Positions 8,096 to 29,400 of a DNA stretch of 64,000 nucleotides are shown here, piece by piece. The notes beneath the pieces are model-generated. The model was not told where the DNA came from. It searched no databases and was given only the letters and a program-made list of their open reading frames with translations. The DNA is from Candidatus Latescibacterota bacterium (GTDB lineage Bacteria > Latescibacterota > UBA2968 > UBA8231), in NCBI GenBank assembly GCA_965261395.1, contig OZ253462.1, positions 4,608,001 to 4,672,000 on the forward strand. Direction: 5' to 3'. The translations under genes and the position numbers were made by a program. Every line of letters starts with the position of its first letter. The stretch's first letter is position 1.

Positions 8096-8107
8096 AAGAA
8101 TCTCCTT

Positions 8108-8137: not shown

Positions 8138-8246
8138 GACGGTCGTTTCCGTGTCGGTGCAGGACTCATCCCCCCGGCCCCCTTTGCGAGGAGGAAAATT
8201 GTGATAAAACCCTAGCTGATGCGGAAGGGAGTTCGGGGATTAGGTC

Positions 8247-11844: not shown

Positions 11845-13200
11845 TCAGTCCGCATCGACGAATTGACGTGCCAATGATCCCTCTCGCGTCAACGCGTACA
11901 CCACGACATTGACGCCCAAATTATAGACCAATGGCTCCTCGGCACCGACGAGAAACGGGCTGCCGACTTCGTTCTTCGCTACCGACGAATCCCGCTCCTG
12001 CTTGGCGACTCCCGCCCAGTAATCGGCATAGCCGCGCATCGAATACACCCCCACCAACTGCTCCCCTACCATGATGCCCTCCAAATAGTCCGGGGTTCGT
12101 GGCGGTCGGTCTTGTCCAGAACTAAACATAGATTCTATATCGCGTATCCCGAGCGGCAGGCTGTTTACATCGTAGAAGCAATGATAGATCGGATGGGTTA
12201 GCTCTAGGCGTTTAAACTGCCAGTCCTTCCATTCTTGATAGCCCTCCGCTTGAAAGCTGGCGCGAATGAGGGAACGCACCGCTGGAACGTCTAATTCGGC
12301 GTCCCTATAATTCACATTGGACCACAAAAGGCGGACAATATCCACAAAAAGGAAGCCGCCGCCGGTCAAATACGCCCCAAAATTGGCCGCCTCGCTGTCC
12401 GTGAACTCAAAGGGGGTATTGACGGTCATGAGAACGAAGGGGACTTGCAAAAGCTGCGGATCGTCGAGCCGAACCGCGTCGCGTACTTCGACGTGGACTT
12501 GCGTACTGGCGACCATCTTATCGGCCAACCCTTGCAGCATCCGCCGTTCCACCAAGCGGCGCGGCATCTGGTGATGCCAGCGCACTCGTATGTTTTCAGC
12601 CTGTTCACTGTACTCAGCCCGTTCGATGGAAGGGCTGTAGATGCCGGACATATAGAGAAAGCCCTTGAGCTTGCGCCGATCTTTTGGATCGACTACCACC
12701 ATCGCCCGGTGCCGACCCGTGTCCATCGCCTGCACATCCATCAACTCCAAGGCCAAATCAATCTCGTCCGCGCCCTGCCGCGTCCCTTCCAACGCCCCAA
12801 CGCGCAGGTGCGGGCCAATATGCCGAGCGGGGAAATCCGGCACGGGCAGCGCCAGCCGATCCGGCAGCGACGCCGTCGGCAGCCGAAGAGCCGAGGTCTT
12901 AAAGACCGGCAGCGGACGCGACGCCGACGGAGCCGGCCGCATGGCCACGACCGGGGCGGCTTGGAGCGCCGGACGGCGCACTAAGGGACGCTGCATGGGG
13001 CGTTGCCGGCGGGTGAGAGTGCGCTGTGGCGGCGGCCGTTTGGTAAACTTCACCATGATCGGCAGTAGGACGGGGAATTGCGTAACCCGCTCGCGGTGCG
13101 TGATCCCGAAAATCACCAGCAGATGCAAGGCCAACGACAACGCCAAGCAGCTTTGCAGTTTTCTATTTTTTTGGAACGGTACTTTCCAAGGTCGTCTCAT
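11845..13200 (-). CDS. Membrane-anchored DUF4159-domain protein
   Basis: N-terminal TM (SLALHLLVI), Pro/Arg linker, YLTGGGFLFVD, HPIYHCFYD, LGVNVVVYALT. Confidence 0.75.
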   Translation of the reverse strand: MRRPWKVPFQKNRKLQSCLALSLALHLLVIFGITHRERVTQFPVLLPIMVKFTKRPPPQRTLTRRQRPMQRPLVRRPALQAAPVVAMRPAPSASRPLPVFKTSALRLPTASLPDRLALPVPDFPARHIGPHLRVGALEGTRQGADEIDLALELMDVQAMDTGRHRAMVVVDPKDRRKLKGFLYMSGIYSPSIERAEYSEQAENIRVRWHHQMPRRLVERRMLQGLADKMVASTQVHVEVRDAVRLDDPQLLQVPFVLMTVNTPFEFTDSEAANFGAYLTGGGFLFVDIVRLLWSNVNYRDAELDVPAVRSLIRASFQAEGYQEWKDWQFKRLELTHPIYHCFYDVNSLPLGIRDIESMFSSGQDRPPRTPDYLEGIMVGEQLVGVYSMRGYADYWAGVAKQERDSSVAKNEVGSPFLVGAEEPLVYNLGVNVVVYALTREGSLARQFVDAD

Positions 13201-14276
13201 CTGCTCAGGTCCCTCCGCAAAGGATGGAAATCGAGCATTGACGCACGTTCCGCCATTTCGTCGCTCGAGATGGTCTGATTCGTTTCGTGAAATGCCATCA
13301 GGCTATGGAGGCGCATCTCCTCTGGTATTAAGGGGTCCGGCCATATAGAAGCAAACCAAAATTCGATTAGATACAGTCGAAGATCCTCATTCTTTTCCAC
13401 CATGTGGGCTATAGACCTACGCCGTTTTTGCGATTCCGCAAACGCATTTTGTGGGCTGAAAAAGTCGTGGTGATGATACAGGTGATAGCTCTGCGCCTTG
13501 GCGGCAAAGCGCATTTTATACCCATTCTGCATGAGGCGATAGGCCAAATCCCATCCTTCAGAATGGGGCAGCTCTTCGTCAAATCCACCGACCTCCTCAA
13601 GAGCGACACGCGGGGCCGAAGCATTATGTGGATAAAAACTGATCCAACCTATCGGCGAGTCGGGCACTTGGTCAGAGAGTACTTGTACTTGGTCTTGCAT
13701 TAATTTTAATTCTGGGAAGGGATACCCGCCCTCTCGGGCTAACGGGGCGATCGCATCAAAATCAGACTGTATCATAGCTTCGGTCACCCGAAATTCGTCT
13801 GGGTACGTACGCATAATATGAGCAACCGATGCTGGAACGTCCTCCCAAGGAAGGCCACTGCGCGGGTCCTGGACGTACTCCAAACGAGGCAAGCAATACT
13901 GGAATCCGCTCGTTACGCCGTTGTAGCGCTGAAATAGTTGCCAATGTTGAGCCAACCAATCGGGACCCGGTAGCGCGTCTCCGTCCAAGAAGGCGATCAA
14001 ATCTCCCCGCGCTTCCGCTATACCGATATTCCGCGCTCGGCAGCGTCCTACATTGGTATTCAAGGGAATGACTTTTACGGGAATTTGCTCATACGTACGC
14101 AGAAAATTCCCTGTTCCGTCCGTGCTGCCATCGTCCACCACGATAACCTCAAACGGGCCTTCAGAGAATGTTTGAACGGCCAAGCCGCTTAAAACGAGCC
14201 GCAACCGATCGCGCTGATTGTGTGCGGCGATGACGACAGAAATATCCATTGAGCTAGCTCCCTTATATACATTCAA
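13197..14276 (-). CDS. Glycosyltransferase family 2
   Basis: ISVVIAAHN, VVDDGSTD, ARNIG, FLDGD, GGFDE..EGWDL. Confidence 0.9.
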   Translation of the reverse strand: MNVYKGASSMDISVVIAAHNQRDRLRLVLSGLAVQTFSEGPFEVIVVDDGSTDGTGNFLRTYEQIPVKVIPLNTNVGRCRARNIGIAEARGDLIAFLDGDALPGPDWLAQHWQLFQRYNGVTSGFQYCLPRLEYVQDPRSGLPWEDVPASVAHIMRTYPDEFRVTEAMIQSDFDAIAPLAREGGYPFPELKLMQDQVQVLSDQVPDSPIGWISFYPHNASAPRVALEEVGGFDEELPHSEGWDLAYRLMQNGYKMRFAAKAQSYHLYHHHDFFSPQNAFAESQKRRRSIAHMVEKNEDLRLYLIEFWFASIWPDPLIPEEMRLHSLMAFHETNQTISSDEMAERASMLDFHPLRRDLSR

Positions 14277-16749
14277 AGACCAAGCGGCATTCCTCTCTCA
14301 GAGAATCCGGCCGATGTATACGATGTATACGAGGAATGCCATTACCCGTCTCTTCGTACACAACGGCTTGTAGCACCTCCTTGGCAGCAGAGTTTGAGCA
14401 TACGATGTGGAAGCAGTCCAAATGGCCAAAGAAAAAGTCAAAATAGGGATCGCTATTCTCCAAGACCTTATGACGTAATGCCTCATTTTGCACATTGGCC
14501 TCCGTTAGTGCTGGAGTACCAATACTGATACCGTGAAATTCCACGGGGATCCATCCGAGATCCGAGATGAAGATCTCAGCCCACGTGTGCCCAAATACCA
14601 CTTCATCATACGTTCGGTTCTCGTACCTGCTCGGCCCTAGAGGATTGACCGCTATGGCTCCGGCTTGCTCGCGAGCTGGTATTTTTAGCAGGCGACAAAG
14701 GGCAGTGAAGGCACGAGCCAACGTAATACAATGTCCGCCGTCGTCCGCTAGTGCTTTTAGGGTGCTACACCGATAGCATTGGCAGCTATCTTTGGTTTTC
14801 TTGAAATGCTTGTTTTTGGCCAAATGGTAGTATAACGAACGGGCTTTTTCTAAATCGCTCGATTCTCCGTCTATATTCACATCCTCCCAACAACTGCAGA
14901 CGAGTGGATGTTCTGCCAAGGATTCATCAACAGTAGTATAGAGCTCAAACTCTTCGGGTGTGAGCACCTCTGTTGCTCGACCCATCGCTCTCGCATAAAC
15001 CGTCAATTCGCACACGTAAGAAAACGTATATGCCTCGCCGGAGCTAAAATCACAAACAGCAGGATAGCCATAGAAAAAACCCGAATGCGGCAAAAAGTGG
15101 CTCTGGATTTCCGTAGGATAGCAAGATAGCAGTTTTATATCCTTCTGAAAGTCGGTGGTTATTGGGTAGGGCAGAAATATCCGCACATTATGTGTTGTAT
15201 CCTCGGTAGCAGATAGAGTGAAGGTATAAGTCAGCCGCAAGCGCTGACTCTCCATAGCGGGATGAAGCGCACCATTTTTTTTGTTAATGAAGAACGAACG
15301 CATCTCCTCACGCGCCTCGTAATCACACGCAAAAAAGCGAGCGTCGTTGTCGTAGAGCCAGTTCCACGAATCAAGGCGATCGTACCATATCCCGTCTTGT
15401 TTCACTTCATGCGGCATCTGGCTATTTTGCCCGTTTTCGAGCATCTCTTCAATTTGCTCGTCATTGAGCACCGTGCTCAACGACAACTGCCGGGCAAAGT
15501 CGCGTTGGCTCATCTGGTAATACGGATCGAGCCGGCCTTCTTCAGTGCGACTCATCCAGTACCCATCAATTACATCTGCGACGCGATTCGCGTCCTGCCA
15601 TTCTCGTATATCGGCAGCAAAAGCACGGCATCGTCTAGCGAATATCGCATAGTGGTTTAACAGCCCCTCGATACTTTGGACGAGAGCCGTCGGTCGGGTG
15701 AAGTCTCGGTAGCTCAATTTGATACCTAGCCCTAGTGCTTGCAGGCGGTCGATAAAATACTCTTGAGTAAAATTCGTGGGAAGCCCAATGACTGGTATTC
15801 CCTTGAACAGAGCTTGGTAGAAGAAACCGTGATCCCCGCCGCCAGCAAAGACAGCCGCTTGGGAGGCGGCCTGCCGCAAAAAACTCGGATCGACGATCTC
15901 GCAGTTTTCTATTGGGTCGATACGCACTCCAACAGGTGGAACCACCCACTGCCGAATCCCTTGCATCCCCAGCTTTTGCACGGCCTCTTGAATAAAGGGC
16001 CAATCGGCCCCCAGCGTTCTGAGATCCCAGTACACCCCCTCCCGCTCCACATCGCCTTGCTCCTCTGCATCAAGCCCCTCAAGCAGCGGTCCTACAAAGG
16101 AGTAGTTGGCAGGCGTCTCCTGTCCCAGTGGATGAACCGCTGGAATATCGCAGAGCAGATACATTTCCCCGAATGTCGTCCCATAAGTCCATTCTCGATG
16201 TGAAGCACGTTCGATTATGTCCTCCCAAGTACGCACAAACTCAGGCGAGAGAATAGGGCAAGAGTATTCGGGTATGTTATATGCCGACGTTATCCAAACC
16301 ACATCAAGCCCTTCCAGTGCCGCAGCCAAGCGCAGCGTGGGACGGGAATCTACGATAGCGAGGTCAGGCTTCAGGCGGGCAATCAACGCTCGCTCGGCTT
16401 CCACGCTCTGATGGATGAACGAATCGTAGTCCGCCTCATTCGTTCCAAAATCCAGTACTGCTCCCAAGTCTTGTATCGGCGTGGCGAGGTCGTGCAGCGG
16501 GAAATCCTCTTGCCGGATTTGGTCGGCAAACGAGCCAGTGCCAGCAAAATCGACGCTGTATCCTCGGCGACGGAGCGTCGTACCCACCACCAAAGAACGA
16601 TGCGCGGAAACGCTATCAAAGCCGTGAAAAAAGATCAGTATTGAAACTCTGTCCCGACCTAGACGACGCGAGCGTTCTTTTTCCTCAAGACGTCTGATGA
16701 CCTTGAAGAGCCTAGCTACGGTCCGCTGCCGTATTGCGTTGAACATCAT
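14263..16749 (-). CDS. GT-B (GT1/GT28-like) glycosyltransferase fused to transglutaminase-like domain
   Basis: N-terminal LRRRGYSVDFAG ... GGGDHGFFYQALFKGIPVIGLP..TQE; C-terminal GHCITLARAF...HTWAEIF...GWIPVE. Confidence 0.75.
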   Translation of the reverse strand: MMFNAIRQRTVARLFKVIRRLEEKERSRRLGRDRVSILIFFHGFDSVSAHRSLVVGTTLRRRGYSVDFAGTGSFADQIRQEDFPLHDLATPIQDLGAVLDFGTNEADYDSFIHQSVEAERALIARLKPDLAIVDSRPTLRLAAALEGLDVVWITSAYNIPEYSCPILSPEFVRTWEDIIERASHREWTYGTTFGEMYLLCDIPAVHPLGQETPANYSFVGPLLEGLDAEEQGDVEREGVYWDLRTLGADWPFIQEAVQKLGMQGIRQWVVPPVGVRIDPIENCEIVDPSFLRQAASQAAVFAGGGDHGFFYQALFKGIPVIGLPTNFTQEYFIDRLQALGLGIKLSYRDFTRPTALVQSIEGLLNHYAIFARRCRAFAADIREWQDANRVADVIDGYWMSRTEEGRLDPYYQMSQRDFARQLSLSTVLNDEQIEEMLENGQNSQMPHEVKQDGIWYDRLDSWNWLYDNDARFFACDYEAREEMRSFFINKKNGALHPAMESQRLRLTYTFTLSATEDTTHNVRIFLPYPITTDFQKDIKLLSCYPTEIQSHFLPHSGFFYGYPAVCDFSSGEAYTFSYVCELTVYARAMGRATEVLTPEEFELYTTVDESLAEHPLVCSCWEDVNIDGESSDLEKARSLYYHLAKNKHFKKTKDSCQCYRCSTLKALADDGGHCITLARAFTALCRLLKIPAREQAGAIAVNPLGPSRYENRTYDEVVFGHTWAEIFISDLGWIPVEFHGISIGTPALTEANVQNEALRHKVLENSDPYFDFFFGHLDCFHIVCSNSAAKEVLQAVVYEETGNGIPRIHRIHRPDSLREECRLVFECI

Positions 16750-16757
16750 TTTGTCCT

Positions 16758-17963
16758 TTACATTCGGCCGCTCGTCCTCAGCAGCTCTTCTACGAACTCA
16801 ACCTTGTCGTCTAGCTGAAGTTCGCGGTATAATTCCAGCGCTTGCCGCCACTGAAGTAAGGCATCAAAAGGAGCCTGATTCGACGCATAGATCCTCCCCA
16901 AGCTGACTCTAACGTCGGCCACGGCTTCCAAGTCCGATACTTTCTCAAACAGTTGCACCGCCTGCCGATATGCCTCCTCAGCCGCATTAAAGTTTTCAAC
17001 GTCCATATAGGCATCACCCAAAAGAGCCGCTTGTACCGCCCGACCTTTGTTGTCCCCAATCGCGTCAAATAGCTCCCTAGCCTGCTGGAACAACGCCGCG
17101 GCTTCTCGCGTGTCACCTTTCTCCCGTAGCACCTGCCCAAGACCGCCCATGGTGCGAGCCTCAAACTGTCTATTGCCTAATTTTTGTTGAATGGCCAGCG
17201 TCCGACGGTACATGGCTTCCGCCTCATCAAACCGACCCGTCTGGCTATATACGCCTCCCAGAACGCTGTAATGATGAGCCAACCCCTCGTCTCGCTGGAG
17301 CCGCTCCTCAATCGCAATGCCTTTTTTGAGGATGTCTTCGGCCTCGGCCAAACGCTTCTGCCCGAGATAGACTAGACCCAAGCCCTGATAGTGGCCAGAA
17401 ATACCCGGCAGATCGCCGAGTTCTTGGCAAACGTTCAGGCCCTGCTGGAAGTAGGCTTCGGCTTCTTCTGGTTTGTTCTGCTGGAGCACCAACTGCCCCA
17501 AGTTGCCGCATTCTTCAGCCCAATAGGCCCTATTTCCCGACGCCTCGTGGAGTTGCTGAGCGCGGGTGTGCAGTTCTTGCGCTTCTCCGATTTTTCCTTG
17601 GAGATGGGCGACAAAGCCTCTATTGCTATAGTTGACGGCCAGACGCTCCTCATCTCGGCGTTCACTATTGATCTCAAAGGCTGTATTGAGATAGTCAACC
17701 GCCTTATCCATCCGCCCCTTGACTTGGTACATAAGTCCCAAGCCGCTACACGCATCTGCTTCCAACTCATGTTCCTGTAACTGCCGTGCTTGCGCAAGGG
17801 CTCTTTGATACAATGCTTCAGCCTTGTCGAGTTCACCTTGTTCCTTGTGATAACGGCCCAAAAGGAGACAAGCCTTCGCTTGGGTGTGTAGATCGCGATC
17901 TTGTGCGACACGCGCACGCTGTATCGCTACGTCGCGTTCGGAAATTAACGGAATGATTTCCAT
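16758..17963 (-). CDS. Cytoplasmic TPR-repeat protein
   Basis: ~9 TPR/MalT-like 40-aa repeats, no signal peptide. Confidence 0.85.
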   Translation of the reverse strand: MEIIPLISERDVAIQRARVAQDRDLHTQAKACLLLGRYHKEQGELDKAEALYQRALAQARQLQEHELEADACSGLGLMYQVKGRMDKAVDYLNTAFEINSERRDEERLAVNYSNRGFVAHLQGKIGEAQELHTRAQQLHEASGNRAYWAEECGNLGQLVLQQNKPEEAEAYFQQGLNVCQELGDLPGISGHYQGLGLVYLGQKRLAEAEDILKKGIAIEERLQRDEGLAHHYSVLGGVYSQTGRFDEAEAMYRRTLAIQQKLGNRQFEARTMGGLGQVLREKGDTREAAALFQQARELFDAIGDNKGRAVQAALLGDAYMDVENFNAAEEAYRQAVQLFEKVSDLEAVADVRVSLGRIYASNQAPFDALLQWRQALELYRELQLDDKVEFVEELLRTSGRM

Positions 17964-17984: not shown

Positions 17985-18515
17985 TTATAACTTTTGCACT
18001 GCTTCCCATACCGGAGGCATCCCTCGTGCAAAAGAGGAAATGGTCCCCTCCTCGCTCACCACGTAAAACTGCGGTACGCCCCCGATCTTATAAGCTTGTG
18101 CAACCGCACCCGCCGAATCGACCAAAACGGGTATCGTTAGGTCATGTTTTTCGACGATTTGCTGCACTTCGTCCTTAGTACCTCGGCTGACCAGTAGCAA
18201 ACGACTCTCTTTGGGAAGGTCGTACTCTACCAAGTAACTTTCCAAGTCATTGCAATACGGGCAGGTAGGGGTTACAAAAATCAGCCCTATCCGCTGCCCC
18301 TTAAAGCTGCTGAGACTGACGTTACCTCCTTGCACAGAGGGCAATTCAAAATCAGGGGCGTCCGTTCCTTCAGACAGAGGCTCAGAACGCGTCGTATCCC
18401 CCTCGCTCCAGACGACCCCCGCTGGTTCCTCAGACTTCTCCTTGAAAATCAGCACGAGCAACAAGACCACACTAACAAGCCCGGCGATCTTCCAATGCTT
18501 TTGATCGGCCATCAT
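17985..18515 (-). CDS. Membrane-anchored TlpA/AhpC-TSA family redoxin (CPYC)
   Basis: N-terminal TM, APDFEL, TPTCPYC, GVP cis-Pro loop. Confidence 0.85.
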   Translation of the reverse strand: MMADQKHWKIAGLVSVVLLLVLIFKEKSEEPAGVVWSEGDTTRSEPLSEGTDAPDFELPSVQGGNVSLSSFKGQRIGLIFVTPTCPYCNDLESYLVEYDLPKESRLLLVSRGTKDEVQQIVEKHDLTIPVLVDSAGAVAQAYKIGGVPQFYVVSEEGTISSFARGMPPVWEAVQKL

Positions 18516-19066
18516 TCGGTCCTCTCTTTTTCAATTACTTTTTGCGCGGATTGCACAATGTTCTCAATCGGGAAGCCTCCGCCCCTAACGGCCTCGACGA
18601 TCTTTTGTTCCCTATCCACCAAGAGCACGGTCGGGAAATTCGTGATGTTGAGATGCTCCATCGTCAGTAACAGCGTATCTACGACAATGGGAAAAGCCAA
18701 GCCATGCTCGGTGACTTTTTCCATCAATCCTTCCCGGGTGTTGGAAACCATCAGGATGGGAATATCTGTAGCCGCTTTCCCTATAATGGGGTACATGGTA
18801 TCACAGGCATCACAGCCCGGCAACGTAAAGACCAGTAGGTGGGATTCGCCCTTGTACAGATGGGTAGAGATCAGGCCGCCATCTAACTGTTCGAGTTCGT
18901 ATTCCGGGACGAGCTCCCCAAGCAGATGATCCAAACCTGTATCCATTAGGACGATTGTAGGATTGTTGATTTTTGTGGCTAACAATATACTGGTCCCCAA
19001 GAGGATGCCCAGCACCGTCGAAAGGAACAGCATCGCCACTGGCGGTTTTGGACGCACATCTTCCAT
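18512..19066 (-). CDS. Membrane-anchored thioredoxin-like redoxin (CDAC), MauD/TlpA-like
   Basis: N-terminal TM, PGCDAC, NFPT cis-Pro loop. Confidence 0.8.
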   Translation of the reverse strand: MEDVRPKPPVAMLFLSTVLGILLGTSILLATKINNPTIVLMDTGLDHLLGELVPEYELEQLDGGLISTHLYKGESHLLVFTLPGCDACDTMYPIIGKAATDIPILMVSNTREGLMEKVTEHGLAFPIVVDTLLLTMEHLNITNFPTVLLVDREQKIVEAVRGGGFPIENIVQSAQKVIEKERTE

Positions 19067-19084: not shown

Positions 19085-20242
19085 CTAAAACGCATCGAAC
19101 AACGGCTGAATCCACCTATTGGCTGGCCGGACGATACTGCCTGCCCATATCAGAGTTAGGCTGACGCCAACCATCAAGGCCGGCGCAAAGGGGAGCGATA
19201 GTTCAATCTCTAACTGATCGTCCCATTCACGGAATAATCCCTTTTTTTCTAAGTCTTTTAATCGGCGCACTTTCCCGATGGTCAACGGCTTGCCCGTTCG
19301 GCCTATTAGCTCCCCCGCATCTCTACCCTGCCCGCCGAACGGAACTACTTCGACTCGGCCTTCCTCGGAGGCTTCATAAATCGACTGGTGTAGCACCATG
19401 CCCGGCTGTAAGGCATCGATAGAGACCGGCTGCACAAACTTCTGGTATTCGAGAGAATGGATATACACATAGACGTTCCGTATGCCCCACAGCACGGCCC
19501 AAAGCACTAGATAGATCAGGTAATCCCCGGTGCTGATGGCACTGAAGACACCTATTACAAGCCCGGGAACGACCAAGATGATTCTATTGGGTGCCTTGGT
19601 CAGATCTTCATGGATCAAATAGAGCACAGCCCCCACCACGATAGCCTCAGCAAGGGTCAACGTCCCGCCGACCAGCGTCGTCCCACCTAACACCAGCCCG
19701 CTCAGTCCTGCTGCCTCAACCCCAGAGCGCAACCATCCCCAACTCATGCCCTTTCTATGCTCACTTGCAGAGGTCTCGATGGGTTTTGCGGGTTTATGAA
19801 TGACCATAAGGACTATAAGAAAAACGGTATTGGTCAAAATGGTGTTGACCAACAAGGCCCAAAGAGGAGTATCCAGCGCAAAGAAGGCTAAGGAGAACGT
19901 CGGCCACTTCGGACCAAACAACGTACTCGGTATAGCCGCGACCATGGCCCAATACAGCTTAGCATCCCCCGCCCCCCAAAAGCCATACATAAACAACAGG
20001 TAGCCTACGGCAAAGCCCAGCAGAAAGGATAGGCCGATCTGTACGAGTGTAACCTCGCCCAATACCCACAACCCAATCTGCCCTATCAGCCCAAGACCGA
20101 GCAAAATCCAAGTAGCCGAGTTGGGAATCTCTCTATGGCTGAGGTCCGTATAGGTGGTGTAGGAGGCAACAACCATGATCGAGCACAACAGACCCCATTC
20201 TAACAAGAAGACGGGATCCATCTCATTCAGCAACATATCCAT
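19085..20242 (-). CDS. A24 family prepilin/preflagellin-type aspartic peptidase
   Basis: Polytopic membrane protein; YTDLSHREIPN and GAGDAKL catalytic Asp motifs; C-terminal LPFAPAL. Confidence 0.85.
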   Translation of the reverse strand: MDMLLNEMDPVFLLEWGLLCSIMVVASYTTYTDLSHREIPNSATWILLGLGLIGQIGLWVLGEVTLVQIGLSFLLGFAVGYLLFMYGFWGAGDAKLYWAMVAAIPSTLFGPKWPTFSLAFFALDTPLWALLVNTILTNTVFLIVLMVIHKPAKPIETSASEHRKGMSWGWLRSGVEAAGLSGLVLGGTTLVGGTLTLAEAIVVGAVLYLIHEDLTKAPNRIILVVPGLVIGVFSAISTGDYLIYLVLWAVLWGIRNVYVYIHSLEYQKFVQPVSIDALQPGMVLHQSIYEASEEGRVEVVPFGGQGRDAGELIGRTGKPLTIGKVRRLKDLEKKGLFREWDDQLEIELSLPFAPALMVGVSLTLIWAGSIVRPANRWIQPLFDAF

Positions 20243-20255
20243 AGCCCAATACTCC

Positions 20256-20846
20256 TCAAAAAGCGGTTCCCTTGGACTCCGCTAGCCAACTTCCCGCTTG
20301 GCTCCATTGAGTCACTAAGGCATTCACGGACAGGGTTGCCCCTGTTATTCCATCGATATCCCGGCCTACAACTAAAGGCTCAGAGAGTGCTCGCCCGATC
20401 AGTTGGGCAAAGAAGGCGGTCGGATCGAAGCGGCCGTCGGCAAGCTCCCAAGATGCCAAGGGCAAAACGCCCGCAACGCGGTCTTCTCCTGGTGCTAAGA
20501 GTATCCCGACCAGTAAATCGCGACAGGTAGGACAGGCAATATCGTGGCGGACGACGACTAGCTTGTAGGCCAACGCTTCGTCCTCCGTAACAACGCGATA
20601 GGCTGATAACACACCAGAACGCGGCGCAGGCACGGCCTGATACACTTCTTTTAGGTGGAGAGAACTCGCTGTGGAATCAAACGCGGCGAGACCGCGCAGC
20701 ACAACTTCTTTAGGCGGAATGGACGGCAGGGGCGATTCGGGGCTGAGGCCCTTTTCATACAGGCCAATAAGCATAATGATCGCAGGTATTAGTAGCAGGA
20801 TTAAACCAGAGTAAATCCAGTATAATGGATGCTTAGGCTGTCCCAT
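20256..20846 (-). CDS. Membrane-anchored FMN-binding (flavinylation motif) protein with CxxC
   Basis: N-terminal TM, IACPTC, DGITGATLS. Confidence 0.75.
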   Translation of the reverse strand: MGQPKHPLYWIYSGLILLLIPAIIMLIGLYEKGLSPESPLPSIPPKEVVLRGLAAFDSTASSLHLKEVYQAVPAPRSGVLSAYRVVTEDEALAYKLVVVRHDIACPTCRDLLVGILLAPGEDRVAGVLPLASWELADGRFDPTAFFAQLIGRALSEPLVVGRDIDGITGATLSVNALVTQWSQAGSWLAESKGTAF

Positions 20847-20892: not shown

Positions 20893-21744
20893 TTAGGGCA
20901 ACTTCGTCGTCTTCTTGGCTTCTATTTGTCCGTCCACCTCAACCTTATAGATATACACCCCGGCGGCCACCGCCTTGCCCGCCTCGTCGCGGCCATTCCA
21001 CACAAACCGATGACGGCCCGCCCCCAGCGGCCCGTCCCACAACTGCCGCACCCGATGCCCCAACACGTCGTAGAGCGCCAAGTGAACCCGCTCCTCGTCG
21101 GTCGCCAAGTCGAGGGGAATGATCATCTGGGGATTAAACGGATTGGGATAGCTTGCGCCCAGCCGATGCTGTGCCGGTCGGCCCGCGATCTCTGAGGTCA
21201 GCACCGCGGTCATCTGATCCTGCTCGGACTCCGAACAAGGAGTGGAGGAGCACTTACAAGATCCTTGCCAATAAATGTCGCCGTCCGCGCCATAGTAAGT
21301 GGTGCAGTACCGGTATGGCTCGGTTGAGTTAAACTCCGCGCAATCGTCGAAGTAGCTGCACTCAATCTTCGTATTGATCCGCTCGAGGCACATATCGGCA
21401 TCCGACACGGTGGGCGCGACCTCCTGCTCGGACTCCGAACAAGGGGTAGAGGCGTACCAGCAATTTGCTATGTAGAGGTTGCAGTACGCGTCCAAGCCAT
21501 AGGCGCAGTAGAGGTATTTATCTTGCGGATCCGCCTGCTGTGCGCCACAATCGAAACTGGGGTTGGAGCTACAGCCGATCCAAGTGGACCCGGTCCCACA
21601 CGACACCCTATCGTCTTCGGCGGCAACTTCTCTCGCGCCGAGCAGGACCACAAGCCCCGCAAGGGCACTTACGACCCACCCCAGCCTCTGCCGCATCGGG
21701 GCCAAGTCACTGGACGAGCCAGTGCATTCACGCAACCTGTTCAT
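20893..21744 (-). CDS. Cys-rich repeat protein with conserved leader and C-terminal FlgD-Ig/T9SS-like domain
   Basis: RBS AAGGAGG before ATG 21744; leader MNRLRECTGSSSDLAPMRQRLGW...AREVAA; 14 Cys after leader; SYPNPFNP...AGVYIY tail. Confidence 0.8.
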   Translation of the reverse strand: MNRLRECTGSSSDLAPMRQRLGWVVSALAGLVVLLGAREVAAEDDRVSCGTGSTWIGCSSNPSFDCGAQQADPQDKYLYCAYGLDAYCNLYIANCWYASTPCSESEQEVAPTVSDADMCLERINTKIECSYFDDCAEFNSTEPYRYCTTYYGADGDIYWQGSCKCSSTPCSESEQDQMTAVLTSEIAGRPAQHRLGASYPNPFNPQMIIPLDLATDEERVHLALYDVLGHRVRQLWDGPLGAGRHRFVWNGRDEAGKAVAAGVYIYKVEVDGQIEAKKTTKLP

Positions 21745-21805: not shown

Positions 21806-22798
21806 TCAAGGCAGCTTCGTCGTCTTTTTCGCTTCCACCTGCCCGTCAATTTCGACCTTATAGATATACACCCCGGCGGCCACGTCTTTGCCTACCTCGT
21901 CGCGGCCATCCCAAGTAAAACGATGACTGCCCGCCTGAAGCGGCCCGTCCCACAACTGCCGCACCCGATGACCCAACACGTCGTATACGGCCAACGACAC
22001 CCCCGCTGCGTCCTTGGCCAAATCAAGAGGGAGCACGACCGCCGGATTGAACGGATTGGGGTAGCTGTCGCCGAGCCCATGCTGCGCCAGTCGGCCTACC
22101 GCCGCTGGCGTCAGCACCGCGGTCATCTGCGCCGACTCGGCCTCCGAACAGGGGGTGGAGGAGCAGTCGCAATTTCTCAAATAAATGTCGCCGCGCGCGT
22201 CATAGTACGTGGTGCAGTGCCGATACGGCTCGGTCGAGTTAAACTCCGCGCAATCGTCGAAGTAGCTGCACTCTGTTTCTTGGTTGAAGCAACCATCGGT
22301 CGGCCCGGCGATCTCGGTCAGCTGCTCTACCTCCGAACAGGGCGTGGAGGAGCACTCACAAAATTCTCGAAAATAAATGTCGCCGCGGGCGTCATAATAC
22401 GTGGTGCAGTGCCGATACGGCTCGGTCGAGTTAGACTCCGCGCACCCGCTGTGGTGGCTGCACTCAATTTTTCGGGTCAGCACGATGGGCGCGGTCGGCT
22501 GCTCGGACTCCAAACAAGGCGTGGAGGAGTACCAGCAATCTACTATGTAGAAGGTGCAGTCCGCGTCCAAACCATAGGTGCAGTAGCGATATACCCCCTT
22601 CGGCTCCGCCAGCGCACAATCCGCGCTAGGGCTGCACGCGGTCCAAGTGTACGGGCACTTAGTGTCGGCTTCGGCTTCCGCGGTCCCGAGCAGAACCACA
22701 AGCCCGGCAAGGGCACGGACGATCCACCCGAGTCCCAGCCCCTGCCGCATCGGAGCCAAGCCACTGGACGAGCCGATAAATTCACACAATCTGTTCAT
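21806..22798 (-). CDS. Cys-rich repeat protein with conserved leader and C-terminal FlgD-Ig/T9SS-like domain
   Basis: Leader MNRLCEFIGSSSGLAPMRQGLGLGW...AEAEA; 20 Cys after leader in three units ending SSTPC; YPNPFNP tail. Confidence 0.85.
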   Translation of the reverse strand: MNRLCEFIGSSSGLAPMRQGLGLGWIVRALAGLVVLLGTAEAEADTKCPYTWTACSPSADCALAEPKGVYRYCTYGLDADCTFYIVDCWYSSTPCLESEQPTAPIVLTRKIECSHHSGCAESNSTEPYRHCTTYYDARGDIYFREFCECSSTPCSEVEQLTEIAGPTDGCFNQETECSYFDDCAEFNSTEPYRHCTTYYDARGDIYLRNCDCSSTPCSEAESAQMTAVLTPAAVGRLAQHGLGDSYPNPFNPAVVLPLDLAKDAAGVSLAVYDVLGHRVRQLWDGPLQAGSHRFTWDGRDEVGKDVAAGVYIYKVEIDGQVEAKKTTKLP

Positions 22799-22899: not shown

Positions 22900-25083
22900 T
22901 CAAGGCAGCTTCGTCGTCTTCTTGGCTTCTATTTGTCCGTCCACCTCAACCTGATAGATATACACCCCAGCGGCCACCGCCTTACCCGCCTCGTCACGGC
23001 CATCCCACACAAACCGATGGCTCCCCGCCCCCAGCGGCCCCTGCCACACCTGCCGCACCCGACGCCCTAACACATCGTACACCGTCAGCGACACTCCCGC
23101 CGCGTCCGTCGCCAGATCAAGAGGGATCACCACAGCCGGATTGAACGGATTGGGGTAGCTATCGCCGAGCCGATGCTGCACCGGCCGCGCTACCACTGGC
23201 GTCATCACGGCGGTCGGCTGCTCGCCCAGAGAGCTCTTGAGCACATGTACGCCGCCCAATATCGGATCTAACACCACCAAGTCGACATCGCCGTCGCCAT
23301 CCATATCCCCAGACAGCACGTATCGCCCACTGCCCTCCAGCCGATGCCGCTCCCCTTCTTGAGTCGGGTTGACACGCCCGCCCCATTCGACAAACACCCC
23401 AAAACCCGAAGCGCGATCCCCACCTATAAACACCCAGTCGTCCACCCCATCGGCATTCAGGTCGCGCACCAATACCGGCGAGCGCCGCAACAGCCGATCA
23501 TCATACAGCACCTCGGCTTCTATGCGGTCCCCGGCTCCCTTGCTCTGCAAGACGATCCCCTTGCTCCCTTCGATCAGATCGAATGTGAACTCGGTGAGGA
23601 AATCCACCTGCCCATCGCCATCAAAATCGCCCACCCCTAACGGATCCATCCATTCATCGAATTCAAATACCTCGCCGATCTGAAGCTCCTCGCCCAAGGC
23701 CCCCACAATCCACCTGTTCTCCCGCCCAGCGAGCGATGTCCAGAACACGTCTAGGGTCCCATCGCTGGTAAAGTCGCCGATCTGAACGGGCGAATAGTTT
23801 TTGGAAGCCGCCACCTCTTCGGAGGTCCACACGCCCTGTTCGACCTCCCACACCGCTAACGTGCTTGAAAACTCCGCCGTACCCGCGATCACTTCCTCTG
23901 AAGAGCCTTCAACCGTAGTCCCCTTTACAAATAATTCGACCCGGCCGTCGCCATCCCAATCTACTACACTATGGATCTGTCTATCGACCTGCACGAGCAC
24001 CTCGATTTGGAGTTCCGGCCCGATAGACCAAACTTCTGTCTTGGGCTCACGGTTGCTTCTTGATATCGCGATTTCGTTTTTACCATCGCCCGTCAAATCA
24101 GCACCAAGCGCCTTTAAGACAACCACTGAGGAGACGGTTATCCCTCCAGTTATACTACCCTCCCCTGTGGCCGCTACTGCTACTTCCTCTATAACAGGCC
24201 CACGTTCCAAGGCACCTCGCCCGTCATTGAGGGCCATCAGCCAGCCCGCTTTAGACTCATCCCCTCCCGGCGATAGTGTTTTCGTTTGCGTTTCCCAGAG
24301 GCCGAACAGGTCTAAGTCGCCATCGCCATCCAAGTCCGTCAACACACCGCCCCCCCTCTCCCCTAGATACCCTCCTCCATACCCTCCATGAAGTGCTTCC
24401 CCTACGCCCAGCGCAATCGGATAGAAAACCGGCGGCGCAAAAAGGCCGGCCCCAGCAAAGCCAAAGTAGTACTCTACGGACGGCGGCGGCAGTTCCCCCT
24501 CTATCAACTCTTCCACGCCGGTCAACTCGATCAAGTCGATCTCAAACGCCTCAACCCCCTCGGTAGCCGAATCAGAATCCAGTATAAAACTTAGCTGAAT
24601 ATTTTTTAACAGGCCCTCCCATCCGTCTTGATCCGCCAGCGAGAACACCACTTCCTGCCACTCGGTGGTATAGACTATTTGTTGTACGAGGTCATCTTCA
24701 AGTTTTTCATAACTAAAAAAATCAAAACCTGAAGAGCTTTCCCACTCTATCCAAAAAGTACCTTCCGTAGGGCGGTCATGGATGGTGCGGAACCGGACGC
24801 GGACTTGGTCGAACAAGCCCGAATCGTACCCGATGGTCGAAGAAATCACTTCGACACCCGGGCTGGAGGCGTACAAACTATTGGTGACGGCGGGATCAAC
24901 CCTGATCCGCCACACACCGTCTTCGACCATCGATGGAAACTGGTGGAATTCACGCGCCCCCCCCCATGTAAGCGCTTCTTTGGCGGTCCACCCTTGCGTC
25001 GTCCCATCGTCAAAATCCCACTTGATCGCCTCGGCGAGACTACTCCACAGCACAATCCATATGACAATGGCGAATTTCAGCAT
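22900..25083 (-). CDS. Secreted FG-GAP repeat protein with C-terminal FlgD-Ig domain
   Basis: Signal peptide; DLDGDGDLD, DFDGDGQVD, DMDGDGDVDL repeats; YPNPFNP tail. Confidence 0.85.
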   Translation of the reverse strand: MLKFAIVIWIVLWSSLAEAIKWDFDDGTTQGWTAKEALTWGGAREFHQFPSMVEDGVWRIRVDPAVTNSLYASSPGVEVISSTIGYDSGLFDQVRVRFRTIHDRPTEGTFWIEWESSSGFDFFSYEKLEDDLVQQIVYTTEWQEVVFSLADQDGWEGLLKNIQLSFILDSDSATEGVEAFEIDLIELTGVEELIEGELPPPSVEYYFGFAGAGLFAPPVFYPIALGVGEALHGGYGGGYLGERGGGVLTDLDGDGDLDLFGLWETQTKTLSPGGDESKAGWLMALNDGRGALERGPVIEEVAVAATGEGSITGGITVSSVVVLKALGADLTGDGKNEIAISRSNREPKTEVWSIGPELQIEVLVQVDRQIHSVVDWDGDGRVELFVKGTTVEGSSEEVIAGTAEFSSTLAVWEVEQGVWTSEEVAASKNYSPVQIGDFTSDGTLDVFWTSLAGRENRWIVGALGEELQIGEVFEFDEWMDPLGVGDFDGDGQVDFLTEFTFDLIEGSKGIVLQSKGAGDRIEAEVLYDDRLLRRSPVLVRDLNADGVDDWVFIGGDRASGFGVFVEWGGRVNPTQEGERHRLEGSGRYVLSGDMDGDGDVDLVVLDPILGGVHVLKSSLGEQPTAVMTPVVARPVQHRLGDSYPNPFNPAVVIPLDLATDAAGVSLTVYDVLGRRVRQVWQGPLGAGSHRFVWDGRDEAGKAVAAGVYIYQVEVDGQIEAKKTTKLP

Positions 25084-25351: not shown

Positions 25352-25633
25352 TTAGCAAGCGCAGCAGTACCAAGCAGAGCACTGGATAGAACAATTCGAA
25401 TCCAGCCGACAGTCCCTACACTTGCACTTCTGTCCCCCGCCCGTGGCCTCGTCGCAACCTGAGCTAGACACCGGACCCTCTCTCCATGAGGTATCGTCGC
25501 AGGCAGCAGCTTCTCGCGCCCCGAGCAGGACGGCGACCCCCGTGAGGGCACTGATGACCCAACCCAACCCCAACCCCTGCCGAGCCGGAGCCAAACCGCT
25601 CGAGGACGTGAAAAATTCCCGAATATTGTCCAT
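25352..25633 (-). CDS. Cys-rich precursor-like peptide B (10 Cys in core)
   Basis: RBS AAGGAG; 44-aa conserved leader then CDDTSWREG...WYCCAC; paralog of 25779..26060. Confidence 0.85.
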   Translation of the reverse strand: MDNIREFFTSSSGLAPARQGLGLGWVISALTGVAVLLGAREAAACDDTSWREGPVSSSGCDEATGGGQKCKCRDCRLDSNCSIQCSAWYCCAC

Positions 25634-25778: not shown

Positions 25779-26060
25779 TCAAACGCAGCAGTAGTTCCCT
25801 CCACACCTTGTCACGCAGTTCGAGTCCAGCCAACAGTCCTGACACATCTTCGGCAATCTCCCGTTCGTAGCCTCGTCGCAACCTGCGTTGTACCCCTTAT
25901 CCCTTGTCCAGCGTCTTTCGTCGCAATCGGCAGCAGCTTCTCGCGCCCCGAGCAGGATCGCGACCCCCGCGAGAGCACTGATGACCCACCCGAGCCCCAA
26001 CCCCTGCCGAGCCGGAGCCAAACCGCTCGACGAGCCGATAAATTCCCGTAACATAGTCAT
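25779..26060 (-). CDS. Cys-rich precursor-like peptide A (8 Cys in core)
   Basis: RBS GAGGGG; leader MTMLREFIGSSSGLAPARQGLGLGW...AREAAA then DCDERRW...NYCCV. Confidence 0.85.
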   Translation of the reverse strand: MTMLREFIGSSSGLAPARQGLGLGWVISALAGVAILLGAREAAADCDERRWTRDKGYNAGCDEATNGRLPKMCQDCWLDSNCVTRCGGNYCCV

Positions 26061-26198: not shown

Positions 26199-26214
26199 TG
26201 CAAGTTTCTTGCCA
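26199..26214 (-). promoter_or_regulatory. sigma54 -24/-12 promoter
   Basis: TGGCAAGAAACTTGCA vs consensus TGGCACGNNNNTTGCW, exact spacing, between a sigma54 activator and peptide A. Confidence 0.85.
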
Positions 26215-26428: not shown

Positions 26429-29400
26429 CTACTTCTTCGGGCGTCGTACCCCGTATTTCTGCATGCGGTAACGCAGCTTCTCCGGGTGCATACCCAACAA
26501 CGCGGCGGCACCATGCACACCATAGATCCTCCAGTGGGTCGCTTGCAGGGCCGCTAGGATTTGCTGCTTTTCGTCCACCTCTTCGACCGGCGGCGCTTCG
26601 TCCGCGTCCCCGGTTCGTCGTTCAGTCGGCGGGTGCTCCCCATCCCCGGCGGGCGGCGCAACCGACGGCAACGACACATCCTCCACCCGCATGACGCCAT
26701 CTTCGCACAGCAAGACCGCGCGGTGGATCAAGTGCTCTAACTCCCGCACATTCCCCGGCCAAGCATACCCCTGCAAGTGCGCGACCACCCCCTCGTCTAG
26801 CGTCGGCACCGACCGCTTTAGGTCTTGGGCGAACCGCGCCACAAAATACGCCGTCAAAGTCGGTATATCCTCTCGCCGCTGCCGCAGCGGCGGAAGCGCT
26901 AGCGTGAAGACGCTCAGACGGTAGAACAGGTCTTCGCGGAACGTGCCCTCCTGTACATCCTGCCGCAGATCGCGGTTGGTCGCCGCCACCACCCGCACCT
27001 CCACGGTTACAGGATGCTCGCCACCGACGCGGGTCAGGGTCTTCTCCTCTAAAATGTGCAGCAGCACCCGCTGGGCTTCTAACGGCAAATCGCCGACTTC
27101 GTCCAGAAAGAGGGTGCCGCCATCGGCTAGTTCAAAGCGCCCGAGCTGGCGGGTGTCTGCCCCGGTAAAGGCCCCTTTCTCGTGGCCAAACAGCTCGCTT
27201 TCGACCAGCCCGGCGGGCAGCGCCCCGCAATTAACTTGGATAAAGGGCCGCTTGCGGCGGGTGCTTGTTTCGTGGACGGTCCGAGCGAGCAAACCCTTGC
27301 CGGTGCCGGTCTCGCCCAGCACCAGCACATTCATATCGGTCTCGGCTACCCGCGAGACCTGTCTCATTACCTCGTGCATGACTCGACTGTGGCTCTGCGC
27401 CATATGGTCAATAGGCCGGAGTGTCCTTTCGAGGGCGTCGATGCGCTCGGTTTTGGCGTCGGGGAGGACCTGAATCTTCAAGCCGACTACCCCGGACCTC
27501 AGGCCATCCCGGTCTATGGTCTGCACCTCAAAGCGGTAGTCACCCACCGGCAAGGCGTTATACGCCACTACATTGGCGGTGGTGAACGCGCTCCACTGTT
27601 CTGCTGGGCCGTAGCCTAACAGGCGGTGGCTATAGCGCATCAGCTTCGCGCCGGTGCGGAAGCTGATACCTTGGAAGCGAACGCGAATTTCCGGGGTGTG
27701 CTCTATACAGGATACGGCTTCGGGCGCAGCAAAGAGGCTCCCGGCCATCACCTCGCGGATCACCAAGCACGGAGACGTGTCGCCGGGCTGGTAGGCGACC
27801 AGTCCGGCCCGCGTCCCAAACCACAGTTGGCCATGGCGGTCGCATTGGATAGCCTCGACTACGTTTCCGAGAGCAGATGGTCCTAAGCGGATGCTTTGAA
27901 AGGTCTGGCCGTCGTAGCGGATCACTCCCCCGCCGCTGGTCCCGATCCAAACATTGCCCTGCCGGTCGGCCGCCAGCGCCAAGATGCCATTGGCCACCAG
28001 CCCGGAATTATTGGCGGTAAAGTGGCCCACCTGCCCCGACGAGCGGTCGAGGATGAAAAGCCCCTTAGCCGTACCTATCCACAAGGTATTTTGATACTCC
28101 CACAAGACATTGACATAGGCGATGGTCTCCGCCTCGGCCATATCCACCGGGCGAAATTGACCGTCTTTGTACCAATAGAGCGCCGGTATTCTTGCGTAGA
28201 AACCAATCCAGAATACCCCGTTTTGGTCTTGCAGCAAGGAACGACACTCGTCGCCTGCCCACTCGTCGAAGGGGATGAAGCGATTGGCTTCTATCCAGCC
28301 GAAGTGGCCCTGGAGCGTGCCAATCCATATACGCCCTTGCTGATCTGTGCACAGCCCGGTGATTTTTTCGGCGTGGGTCTCTTCAGTCACCGTGATCACT
28401 TGCGGCGTTTGGCCCCCCCACTTGTACACCCGGCCGGTGTCCCCACCACTCCAAACCTGCCCCTCTTCATCCACCACCATCGCCGAAACGGTTTCATCCG
28501 TATTGAGCGGACAGATTTGGCCCTCTTCCATATAGGCCATACCGCCCATCGTGCCGATCCACATCCGTCCCCCATGGTCTTCTCCCAAATGGCAAATCTC
28601 GCGGTCGGGCAGGCCGTCGGCTTCCGTGTAGCACCGGATGCTGGCCGGATCGCAAAAAATCAGCCCGCCGCCCCAAAGCCCGATCCAGATATTGCCCTCG
28701 CGGTCCTCGTAGGTCAGGCGCGTACCCGAAAAGTCTGCATCCGGCAGGGAGACGGAAAAATGATGCCACTCTTGATCATTGTGTACAACCACCCCTCGGC
28801 GTGCCAGCCAGAGTCGGTCCCCATCGTCAGCCCGCACGTGCCGCACCCCGTTCTGCGTGCCCCTATCGGTCTTATGGCCCACATGGATGAATGCAAACTG
28901 CTCGTCTCGCGGATCGTAGCGGCCAATAAAGGTTTCGGGGGCCGTGTACAGGAAGGCGATCCACAGATGGCCGGAAGAGGTTTGGGCGAATTTCCAAGGA
29001 TGTTGAATCGCCTCCTCGTCAATACCCATGCACCGCCCATCTAAGCTGATGATGCCTCGGTCCCACGTCGCCAGCCAGGTAGTACCCGCCGCGTCGGTGG
29101 CCATATCGTACACCCGCCCCAAAGGTTGGCCGCCAACTTCGGTTATGAGCTTTGTGCAGCGATCTTGGGCAAACCAAGCCACGCCCGCGCCAGTCAACGC
29201 CACAATCGAACCATCCGGCTGGACTTGCAAACCCATGATCTCGTTGGAAGGCAGGCCGTGCTCAGTGGTGTACACCTGAAAGCCGCGCCCGTCATAGGCG
29301 GCAATCCCCCCGCCGAACGTGCCGAACAGCAGCCGCCCGTCGGCTTCCTCGGCAATGGCCATGACCGTCAGATTGGGCAGGCCGTCTTTGAGGCCAAAGT

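Follow-up and report, generated by a model that had tools for sequence, protein, structure and literature searches.

A24 peptidases are the textbook enzymes of type IV filament biogenesis. TadV and CpaA, short members of the family that lack the methyltransferase domain of PilD, cut small Flp prepilins after a glycine. C39 double-glycine peptidase domains, for their part, are the dedicated leader peptidases of bacteriocins and of peptides that are made by ribosomes and modified after translation (RiPPs). For the archaeal A24 enzymes, excerpts of a published account (PMC4187195) state that archaellin signal peptides usually have 6 to 12 residues, with a critical Gly at −1, basic residues at −2 and −3, and Gly at +3; that EppA exceeds FlaK in size by four extra membrane segments; and that PibD also has non-pilin substrates, namely, sugar-binding proteins that depend on the pilus-like assembly system Bas. 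For the antiphage system HXS, Li et al. (Nat Commun 2026, PMC13128918) report that N-terminal cleavage of HxsA needs HxsB, HxsC, and HxsD; the four-gene system as published has no peptidase gene, and the words peptidase, A24, and prepilin are absent from that paper. Here, we describe an A24 peptidase gene in a 64,000-nucleotide stretch of the genome of a Candidatus Latescibacterota bacterium (assembly GCA_965261395.1, contig OZ253462.1, positions 4,608,001 to 4,672,000; this whole stretch is called the window, and coordinates are counted from its first nucleotide). We propose that the enzyme is a dedicated leader peptidase for non-pilin, secreted, Cys-rich peptides and proteins, that it acts alongside signal peptidase I, and that it was recruited from type IV filament biogenesis. 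We put the probability of this reading at roughly 0.55. The enzyme and its candidate substrates are as follows.

19085..20242, minus strand: A24B-type GxGD aspartyl membrane protease, 385 amino acids (PF01478, invariant Asp pair, AlphaFold2 model, FlaK fold match)
25779..26060, minus strand: precursor peptide A, 93 amino acids; leader of about 44 residues ending in AAA and a core that has 8 Cys in about 49 residues (open reading frame [ORF] and alignment)
25352..25633, minus strand: precursor peptide B, 93 amino acids; leader as in peptide A and a different Cys-rich core (ORF, tblastn, and alignment)
21806..22798, minus strand: 330-amino-acid protein that has the same leader, a series of Cys-rich modules, and, at the C terminus, a type IX sorting domain (TIGR04183, 29.7 bits versus a cut-off of 23; FlgD_ig)
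20893..21744 (start taken at 21744), minus strand: 283-amino-acid paralog with a degenerate leader (SSSDLAP/RQRLGW), Cys-rich modules, and a type IX domain (TIGR04183, 26.9 bits)

The protease matched the Peptidase_A24 family of Pfam (PF01478) from residue 22, where the A24 domain begins, to residue 123 (36.8 bits versus a cut-off of 26.5; E value, 5.6e-9). Both of the catalytic motifs that an initial annotation of the window had pointed out were found, with Asp33 in YTDLSHREIPN and Asp93 in GAGDAK (G-A-G-D). An exhaustive HMMER search returned 320 representatives at an E value of ≤1e-3, mostly full length (330 to 400 amino acids), and an alignment of 60 full-length rows was picked from these. 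D33, D93, K95, and N133 were invariant in the 60 homologs, and both Asp residues were likewise invariant in 15 closer ones. That the gene is a relic or encodes an inactive enzyme was considered and rejected in view of its invariant catalytic residues and of 71 to 91% conservation of the protein in relatives. Among the 60 homologs, PF01478 was matched by 58, Arc_PepC (PF06819) by 24, and Arc_PepC_II by 4, with weak matches to the EppA model in 11 and to the FlaK model in 10. We placed the window protease among A24 enzymes by hidden Markov model (HMM) and fold matches. Its best NCBIfam match was FlaK (NF040695; 30.7 bits, far under the equivalog cut-off of 330), and FlaK was also its sole sequence match in the PDB (E value, 3e-8). 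The EppA equivalog model (NF053826) did not match the protein, and the N-terminal methyltransferase (DiS_P_DiS) region of PilD-type (A24A) enzymes is absent, as Pfam gave PF01478 and one chance-level match.

The AlphaFold2 model of the protease (predicted local distance difference test [pLDDT], 88.1; predicted template modeling score, 0.83) had FlaK (3s0x_B) as its top fold match by VIA (Z score, 13.0; root mean square deviation, 3.2 Å; runner-up Z score, 6.9), and 165 of 186 residues were aligned over model residues 11 to 376. Foldseek gave the same pair a probability of 0.99 yet an E value of 0.15. Beyond the FlaK core, the model has about five inserted membrane helices (residues ~126 to 268), a Lys/Arg-rich, beta-rich soluble domain (~270 to 347), and a last membrane helix (353 to 384) that includes LPFAPAL, in agreement with the extra transmembrane helices and soluble C-terminal insert annotated initially. 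Together, the model and the positive-inside rule suggest an N-out topology, which would put the two Asp residues at the cytoplasmic face and make the beta-domain cytoplasmic. A complex prediction for the protease and leader residues 1 to 50 scored 0.20 against a mark of 0.32, in a run without controls, and is informative neither way. The family, catalytic residues, and fold of the protein are shown by these analyses, as is the absence of filament genes from its genome. The host genome is a single contig of 6.55 Mb (95.3% complete, 8% contamination), in which PF01478 was matched exactly once, by the gene at 19085..20242. Across the whole genome, there were no matches to T2SSE (PF00437), T2SSF (PF00482), N_methyl (PF07963), or Flp_Fap (PF04964), whereas the T2SSE and T2SSF searches were positive in 13 of 14 control genomes. 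The lack of pilus genes, first noted for the window, thus holds genome-wide; given a single A24 gene and no filament-family match, neither a classical substrate nor classical machinery was seen. The genome also encodes one signal peptidase I.

The candidate substrates are defined by their leader. In the cluster proteins, it reads M..L[RC]EF[IF][GT]SSSGLAP.RQGLGLGW, followed by about 17 hydrophobic residues and an AxA motif, and the fourth copy is degenerate. As the initial annotation had it, three leaders, those of the minus-strand genes that start at 26060, 25633, and 22798, contain RQGLGLGW at the boundary of the n-region and the hydrophobic stretch; the copy starting at 21744 reads RQRLGW, and all four leaders end in an AxA-type site. 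A six-frame scan of the genome found SSGLAP followed by RQGLGLGW at these three places only, and tblastn with peptide A returned the four cluster copies only. Peptide A belongs to no Pfam or NCBIfam family. We aligned 31 precursors from the window and related loci, and comparison of their leaders with all NCBIfam models gave nothing meaningful. The pattern in relatives is EF-x2-S-[SE]-S-G ... R-x-G-L-x-L-G-W, a hydrophobic stretch, and AxA. Counted over the 31 leaders, Phe7 and Gly13 were each present in 30, Trp25 in 29, Ser10 in 27, Leu21 in 26, Gly20 in 24, and Arg18 in 21, and the spacing of five residues from Gly20 to Trp25 was constant. For 11 close-lineage peptides (55 pairs), mean pairwise identity was 0.83 between leaders but 0.31 between cores; for all 31 precursors, the values were 0.39 and 0.21, respectively. 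The cores hold 6 to 10 Cys residues. The precursors therefore have a RiPP-like or bacteriocin-like layout, with a conserved leader, a variable core, and dedicated processing genes nearby. Three of these nearby genes encode putative redox proteins.

20256..20846, minus strand: RnfG/NqrC-like protein with a flavin mononucleotide (FMN)-binding domain, membrane anchored, 196 amino acids; CxxC (C105/C108) and a D-G-x-[ST]-G-A-T motif (T171)
18512..19066, minus strand: TlpA/ResA-like thiol-disulfide oxidoreductase 1, membrane anchored, 184 amino acids, CDAC (Pfam Redoxin, NCBIfam ResA-like)
17985..18515, minus strand: TlpA/ResA-like thiol-disulfide oxidoreductase 2, anchored, 176 amino acids, CPYC (AhpC-TSA, E value of 2.4e-19; Redoxin; NCBIfam ResA-like)

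Linkage of the protease to the leader genes and to these thioredoxin-like (Trx) and FMN/CxxC genes was followed at related loci. At nine close loci (protease identity, 82 to 88%), the order leader genes, FMN/CxxC gene where present, A24, Trx, and Trx was maintained. The homolog of the 184-residue Trx protein follows the protease gene in all nine, and that of the 176-residue protein is present in eight (it was not found in L007). In L008 (11725 to 13472), the latter is split by about 1.1 kb, suggestive of an insertion in that relative. The 196-residue protein is encoded in seven of the nine loci; L003 is cut by the contig end, and the primary cluster of L010 does not have the gene. Genes with the leader were likewise present in seven of nine, with no usable upstream sequence in L003 and only about 2.4 kb in L007. 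A second cassette, comprising the protease, the 196-residue protein, both Trx proteins, and a precursor at 37 to 41% identity, lies about 7 kb away in L010. A further 20 divergent loci surround protease paralogs of 28 to 42% identity in three families of the class. At these, homologs of either Trx protein were found within 8 kb in 18 (the exceptions being L046 and L049), and 11 had the FMN/CxxC gene. In 16 of the 20, there were small Cys-rich precursors whose leader is related (none was seen in L045, L046, L049, or L053); matches at E values of 0.001 to 0.4 were accepted by eye from the motif and the Cys-rich core. Pilus genes were not seen among the proteins compared, whether at the close loci (9) or at the divergent ones (20).

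The association extends to the phylum as a whole. The protease was found in 32 of 168 genomes, belonging to 7 of 49 genera and often carrying several copies, and the leader profile was found in 37 of the 168, with up to 20 matches per genome, some of them distant from the protease gene. All 32 A24-positive genomes were leader positive. Like the gene linkage, this co-occurrence is shown by the data. Two single-contig genomes of the same genus, G135 and G142, lack A24 and a full-length gene for the 196-residue protein; they hold large type IX cargo only, in which SSSG or RQGLGLGW is lost or broken and the hydrophobic stretch and AxA are kept. One leader-bearing protein in this set is truncated at 42 residues. 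In G091, a precursor gene adjoins short, decayed remnants of the two Trx genes and the gene for the 196-residue protein. The number of leader-type genes varies, with 20 matches in G130 and 13 in G146, several of them with in-frame stop codons; G130, G145, G131, G139, and G105 were the genomes noted for abundance or decay of leader genes. Duplicated leader genes and in-frame stops together indicate that the precursor family turns over fast by duplication and decay.

More distant relatives of the protease occur in a different kind of peptide maturation cassette. Scanning of metagenomes with a 15-row protease alignment and the pattern G[FL]W[AG][PA]GD[AG]K gave 28 loci. Two of these (L066 and L067) are of the Latescibacterota paralog type, with the full cassette in L066; the other 26 carry relatives at 21 to 31% identity, and 20 of them were examined by Pfam or NCBIfam. 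Thirteen of the 20 have one to four radical S-adenosylmethionine (SAM) genes within about 5 kb, six were uninformative, and one is pilus type: L090, a Tad/secretin locus in which similarity is limited to the N-terminal third of the protease. Pilus genes beside homologs, a circumstance that would have spoken for a conventional role, were thus confined to 1 of 20 distant loci. In L089, the order is hxsA3, hxsD, A24-like, hxsC, and hxsB, with scores of 121.9 bits versus 65 for HxsA3 (NF038309), 264 versus 268 for HxsC, and 473 versus 370 for HxsB. The A24-like protein between HxsD and HxsC has 354 amino acids (4573 to 5634) and no NCBIfam model; it is 31% identical to the window protease over 109 residues of the catalytic core (E value, 2e-7), with both catalytic motifs and GDAKL in common. 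Four loci from a viral collection (L094 to L097), found with an HxsA3 alignment, have the order hxsD, A24-like, hxsC, and hxsB, and hxsA3 lies downstream of hxsB at a distance of about 0.9 kb; the A24-like protein of these loci (3840 to 4856 in L094) is 40% identical to that of L089. A tblastn search with the L089 protease gave no match on plasmids and none on viral contigs. L078 contains an HxsA3-like ORF, a 150-amino-acid ORF that we read, without a family scan, as HxsD-like, an A24-like gene (7968 to 9017), and two radical-SAM genes. HxsA3-type cassettes may be said to carry a fifth, A24-like gene product of about 340 to 354 amino acids, beside HxsA3, HxsB, HxsC, and HxsD, each of which has an NCBIfam model. 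In L069 and L075, an A24-like gene is combined with radical-SAM genes of the Hxs type and with His-rich repeat peptides whose leader is of the same kind; in L074, L076, L077, and L091, scans showed no small His-rich or leader-like precursor, though radical-SAM genes flank the protease gene.

The leaders of the two kinds of cassettes were then compared. The consensus of 30 HxsA3 leaders is FP.IKKSI.DFLYEEEGNIPRNK.LT.GSM, a hydrophobic stretch, and DAFA|AHRSH. Alignment of the Latescibacterota and HxsA3 leaders by hhalign covered 43 columns (E value, 2.9e-4; probability, 40%) and paired Phe7, Gly13, Pro16, Leu21, and Gly24 with Phe16, Gly22, Pro25, Leu30, and Gly33 of HxsA3. The equivalent of Gly13 is nearly invariant in HxsA3, and that of Gly20 is not Gly. 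No radical-SAM or HxsD family was found by Pfam and NCBIfam among the window cluster proteins scanned. The best genome-wide match to HxsB reached 69 bits versus a cut-off of 370 and lay far from the cluster, and the HxsA3 model (NF038309) matched nothing in the genome and none of the 31 leaders at E values up to 10.

Since the protease alone is common to the Trx and radical-SAM cassettes and the leader layout alone is common to their precursors, it is the protease that probably recognizes and cuts the n-region. Moreover, judging from the model and the positive-inside rule, no other universal partner has a cytoplasmic domain that could reach the n-region, which again points to recognition there. 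We infer from these patterns that the leader is the substrate, as well as the likely cut site, the order of two cuts, and the roles of the redox proteins. Precursors would insert into the inner membrane N-in via the hydrophobic stretch. The enzyme would recognize the cytoplasmic n-region (E-F-x2-S-[SE]-S-G ... [RK]-x-G-[LF]-x3-W), probably by its beta-domain, and cleave at the cytoplasmic face, with the positions after Gly13 and Gly20 as candidate sites. Signal peptidase I would cleave after AxA at the periplasmic face, the two TlpA-like oxidoreductases and the FMN/CxxC protein would handle the disulfides of the core, and cores with a type IX secretion domain would cross the outer membrane. 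We favor two cuts over simple class III processing because AxA is universal, type IX cargo needs freeing, the n-region is long and lacks a basic −2 residue, and Gly20 is variable. Given AxA in every leader and a type IX domain on some cargo, an A24 cut cannot be the sole processing step.

More tentatively, this A24 clade, a widespread one, could be no pilus enzyme but the cognate peptidase of a portable export and maturation tag, F-x2-[SE]-[SE]-x-G ... L-x-L-G followed by a membrane stretch and AxA, that has been plugged into unrelated cassettes and whose cytoplasmic cut would be a checkpoint coupling maturation to Sec export. The cassettes in question would be the radical-SAM His-Xaa-Ser type, one type of which serves in antiphage defense, and the flavin/thioredoxin type for oxidative folding of hypervariable Cys-rich peptides, some of which would be passed on to type IX secretion. 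We regard this extension as possible rather than probable; if true, the tag would be a new protein-sorting signal of bacteria, served by a sorting enzyme of its own.

In Rnf and Nqr, the subunits RnfG and NqrC face outward and carry covalently bound flavin. The 196-residue protein of the window fell under the cut-off of the Pfam FMN_bind model (E value, 0.015). It has an N-terminal anchor, and its CxxC and D-G-x-[ST]-G-A-T motifs are invariant across 16 homologs; we take the latter motif to be the flavinylation site (T171). Its AlphaFold2 model (pLDDT, 80) had RnfG (7zc6_G) as the top Foldseek match (E value, 1.4e-4), with NqrC chains next, and the genome encodes one ApbE flavin transferase. 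The natural reading of these sequence features is that the two anchored TlpA-like proteins and the FMN/CxxC protein would form an extracytoplasmic thiol-disulfide relay for the peptides, be it oxidizing, reducing, or isomerizing. The combination of an RnfG-like FMN domain and an invariant CxxC may provide a new electron feed or drain for disulfide chemistry outside the cytoplasm. In L098 (9024 to 10059; genome G080), an FMN/CxxC gene and a single TlpA-like gene occur without A24 or leader genes nearby and may be a separate flavin-thiol redox pair.

All genes of the cassette lie on the minus strand, in the order activator, precursors A and B, FG-GAP protein, the two type IX proteins of about 300 residues, 196-residue protein, A24, Trx, Trx, and accessory genes. 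The remaining features are as follows.

26429..29563, minus strand: sigma-54 activator, 1,044 amino acids, with Reg_prop/Y_Y_Y sensor repeats (NCBIfam/Pfam); upstream of the precursor genes and recurring at related loci
26200..26214, minus strand: sigma-54-type −24/−12 element TGGCAAGAAACTTGC, one mismatch, 154 nucleotides (nt) upstream of peptide A
22900..25083, minus strand: FG-GAP beta-propeller protein, 727 amino acids, signal peptide of the ordinary kind, type IX secretion domain (Pfam, NCBIfam, and synteny)
16758..17963, minus strand: TPR protein (Pfam)
14263..16749, minus strand: 828-amino-acid protein with a macrolide-glycosyltransferase-like region and a transglutaminase-core (cysteine-protease-fold) domain (Pfam)
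13197..14276, minus strand: GT2 glycosyltransferase (Pfam)
11845..13200, minus strand: DUF4159 protein, beside the accessory genes

Small Cys-rich precursor genes repeatedly precede a gene for an FG-GAP/type IX protein of about 720 residues, in tandem pairs in L004 (3628 to 9347) and L006 (3659 to 9388). The propeller protein might carry, bind, or guard small peptides that have no sorting domain of their own. The type IX sorting domain itself is generic in this genome, as tblastn with a sorting-domain protein gave very many matches genome-wide. The gene for the 828-residue protein, together with GT2, TPR, and DUF4159 genes, comes after the cassette in seven of the nine close loci and in 1 of the 20 divergent loci (L041, a 40% identical paralog). 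Since the accessory genes (13197..17963) were found in 1 of 20 divergent loci, they stand outside the universal core. The 828-residue, GT2, TPR, and DUF4159 proteins hint at further modification, by glycosylation or cross-linking, in this subtype only. Of 34 precursor genes examined, 8 in seven loci (the window, L002, L004, L005, L006, L008, and L010) have a sigma-54 element (TGGCA-N6-TTGC) upstream at −136 to −160, against about 0.27 expected by chance; these 8 are the first small precursor genes of close-lineage loci. A relaxed form of the pattern had 62 matches in the whole window versus 70 expected and was not above chance. From these elements and the activator gene just upstream, the precursors are probably sigma-54 regulated.

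The initial annotation had suggested that the peptides may be non-canonical class III substrates, cut at RQG|LGLGW. The partnership implied by this suggestion holds up well: the link between enzyme and leader is strong, resting on synteny down to 28% protease identity, co-occurrence in 32 of 32 genomes, the decayed leaders, and the Hxs relatives. The proposed cut site is doubtful. A number of observations weigh against it or, more broadly, against a leader peptidase role. The n-region spans 19 to 45 residues, the −2 residue is not basic, and Gly20, present in 24 of 31 leaders versus 30 of 31 for Gly13, is replaced by I, A, V, or S in the rest. Gly13 itself, 12 residues ahead of the hydrophobic stretch, follows Ser or Glu rather than basic residues. 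Every leader has a canonical AxA; with signal peptidase I present, periplasmic release needs no A24 cut, and the type IX cargo must in any case be freed from the membrane. The co-occurrence counts overstate independence, since the genomes are related and come from 7 genera. Five leader-positive genomes had no protease match, in a search with the 60-row profile that had no positive control of its own. One of the five, G120, is 75% complete; another, G088, is 97% complete on one contig and has an apparently intact small precursor with no A24 gene or module. In G080, the gene for the 196-residue protein and one Trx gene occur with no A24 or leader gene within about 9 kb, which indicates that the redox pair is separable from the A24/leader pair. 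Finally, a common leader design with HxsA3 is moderately supported by the sequence alignment, which falls short of proof of homology.

It is conceivable, although unlikely, that the leader serves another partner, either the modifying enzymes (glycosyltransferases, transglutaminase-core and TPR proteins here; radical-SAM and HxsD proteins elsewhere) or the timing of export, and that the A24 protein has some other substrate, such as the TlpA-like or FMN anchors, or a scaffold role. RiPP leaders normally recruit modifying enzymes, which counts in favor of this explanation. The precursor without an enzyme in G088 also fits, as does the N terminus of the 176-residue Trx protein (MMADQKHWKIAG-LVSVVLLL), which is loosely class III-like. 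In addition, the published account of HXS (PMC13128918) makes HxsA cleavage dependent on HxsB, HxsC, and HxsD without naming a peptidase. However, the glycosyltransferase, transglutaminase-core, and TPR genes were not found in 19 of 20 divergent loci, the cluster has no radical-SAM genes, and no HxsB match reached the cut-off genome-wide. The Hxs cassettes have neither the Trx proteins nor the FMN protein, so the protease alone tracks the common leader layout, and its invariant catalytic Asp residues favor proteolysis.

The explanation that we treat as the main rival is a role like that of signal peptide peptidases, the eukaryotic representatives of which are among the GxGD proteases. Signal peptidase I would mature the peptides, and the A24 enzyme would cut the left-over leader, either to clear it or to release the conserved N-terminal fragment into the cytoplasm, for example, as feedback to the neighboring sigma-54 activator. 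The universal AxA site and the presence of signal peptidase I agree with this, but general clearance of signal peptides would need no dedicated, co-inherited enzyme. Release of a fragment would be in keeping with the sigma-54 activator and sigma-54-type promoter that flank the precursor genes; however, most divergent loci and the Hxs cassettes showed no such activator, and there was no sign of any factor binding the fragment. The n-region is conserved far beyond the needs of release, which also speaks for this explanation. We consider it quite unlikely. An ordinary prepilin or preflagellin peptidase for cryptic pilins and divergent filament machinery encoded elsewhere in the genome would suit the A24 family membership, a genome that is 95% rather than 100% complete, and N_methyl and Flp models that miss divergent pilins, but it is very improbable given a single-contig genome negative for T2SSE and T2SSF in searches with positive controls and the near absence of pilus genes from the close, divergent, and distant loci.

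A dedicated leader peptidase thus remains our preferred reading. In the full-text literature (bioRxiv supplements and subscription journals lay outside the search), we found no A24 leader peptidase for modified or Cys-rich peptides and no such Latescibacterota cassette. What the locus presents is a known kind of enzyme in an undescribed cassette, and the initial suggestion is partly supported, with a strong partnership and a doubtful class III site. If the leader peptidase reading is true, the role of the A24 family would widen to soluble secreted peptides in a genome without filament machinery, and an intramembrane GxGD protease would join the classes of leader peptidases of ribosomal peptides. 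It would also provide a candidate enzyme for the N-terminal processing step in His-Xaa-Ser-type systems, and the leader could be used for mining hypervariable disulfide-rich peptides in uncultured phyla.

Compared with known systems, the window enzyme is closest to the archaeal A24B enzymes FlaK, EppA, and PibD, with which it shares the Pfam family and the two catalytic Asp residues in the same helices, FlaK being the best fold match. In contrast to these, it is bacterial and is encoded in a genome without filament ATPase or platform, and its candidate substrates are soluble and Cys-rich, with a long n-region, no basic −2 residue, AxA, and, in some cases, a type IX destination. TadV and CpaA act on the Flp pilins of type IVc pili, whereas the window genome has no Flp family match and no TadA-type ATPase. 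With the C39-type leader peptidases, the cassette shares a conserved leader and hypervariable core, several precursors per enzyme, and co-inheritance of leader and peptidase; it differs in the GxGD intramembrane class of the enzyme, in the proposed cytoplasmic-face cut of a membrane-inserted signal, and in the use of Sec and signal peptidase I with no ABC exporter. The HxsA3-type cassettes resemble it in having a homologous protease, a peptide maturation setting, a leader with a membrane stretch and AxA, and a periplasm-bound product. Unlike them, the window has no radical-SAM protein, HxsD, or His-Xaa-Ser repeats and instead combines Cys-rich cores with thiol-disulfide oxidoreductases and an FMN/CxxC protein.

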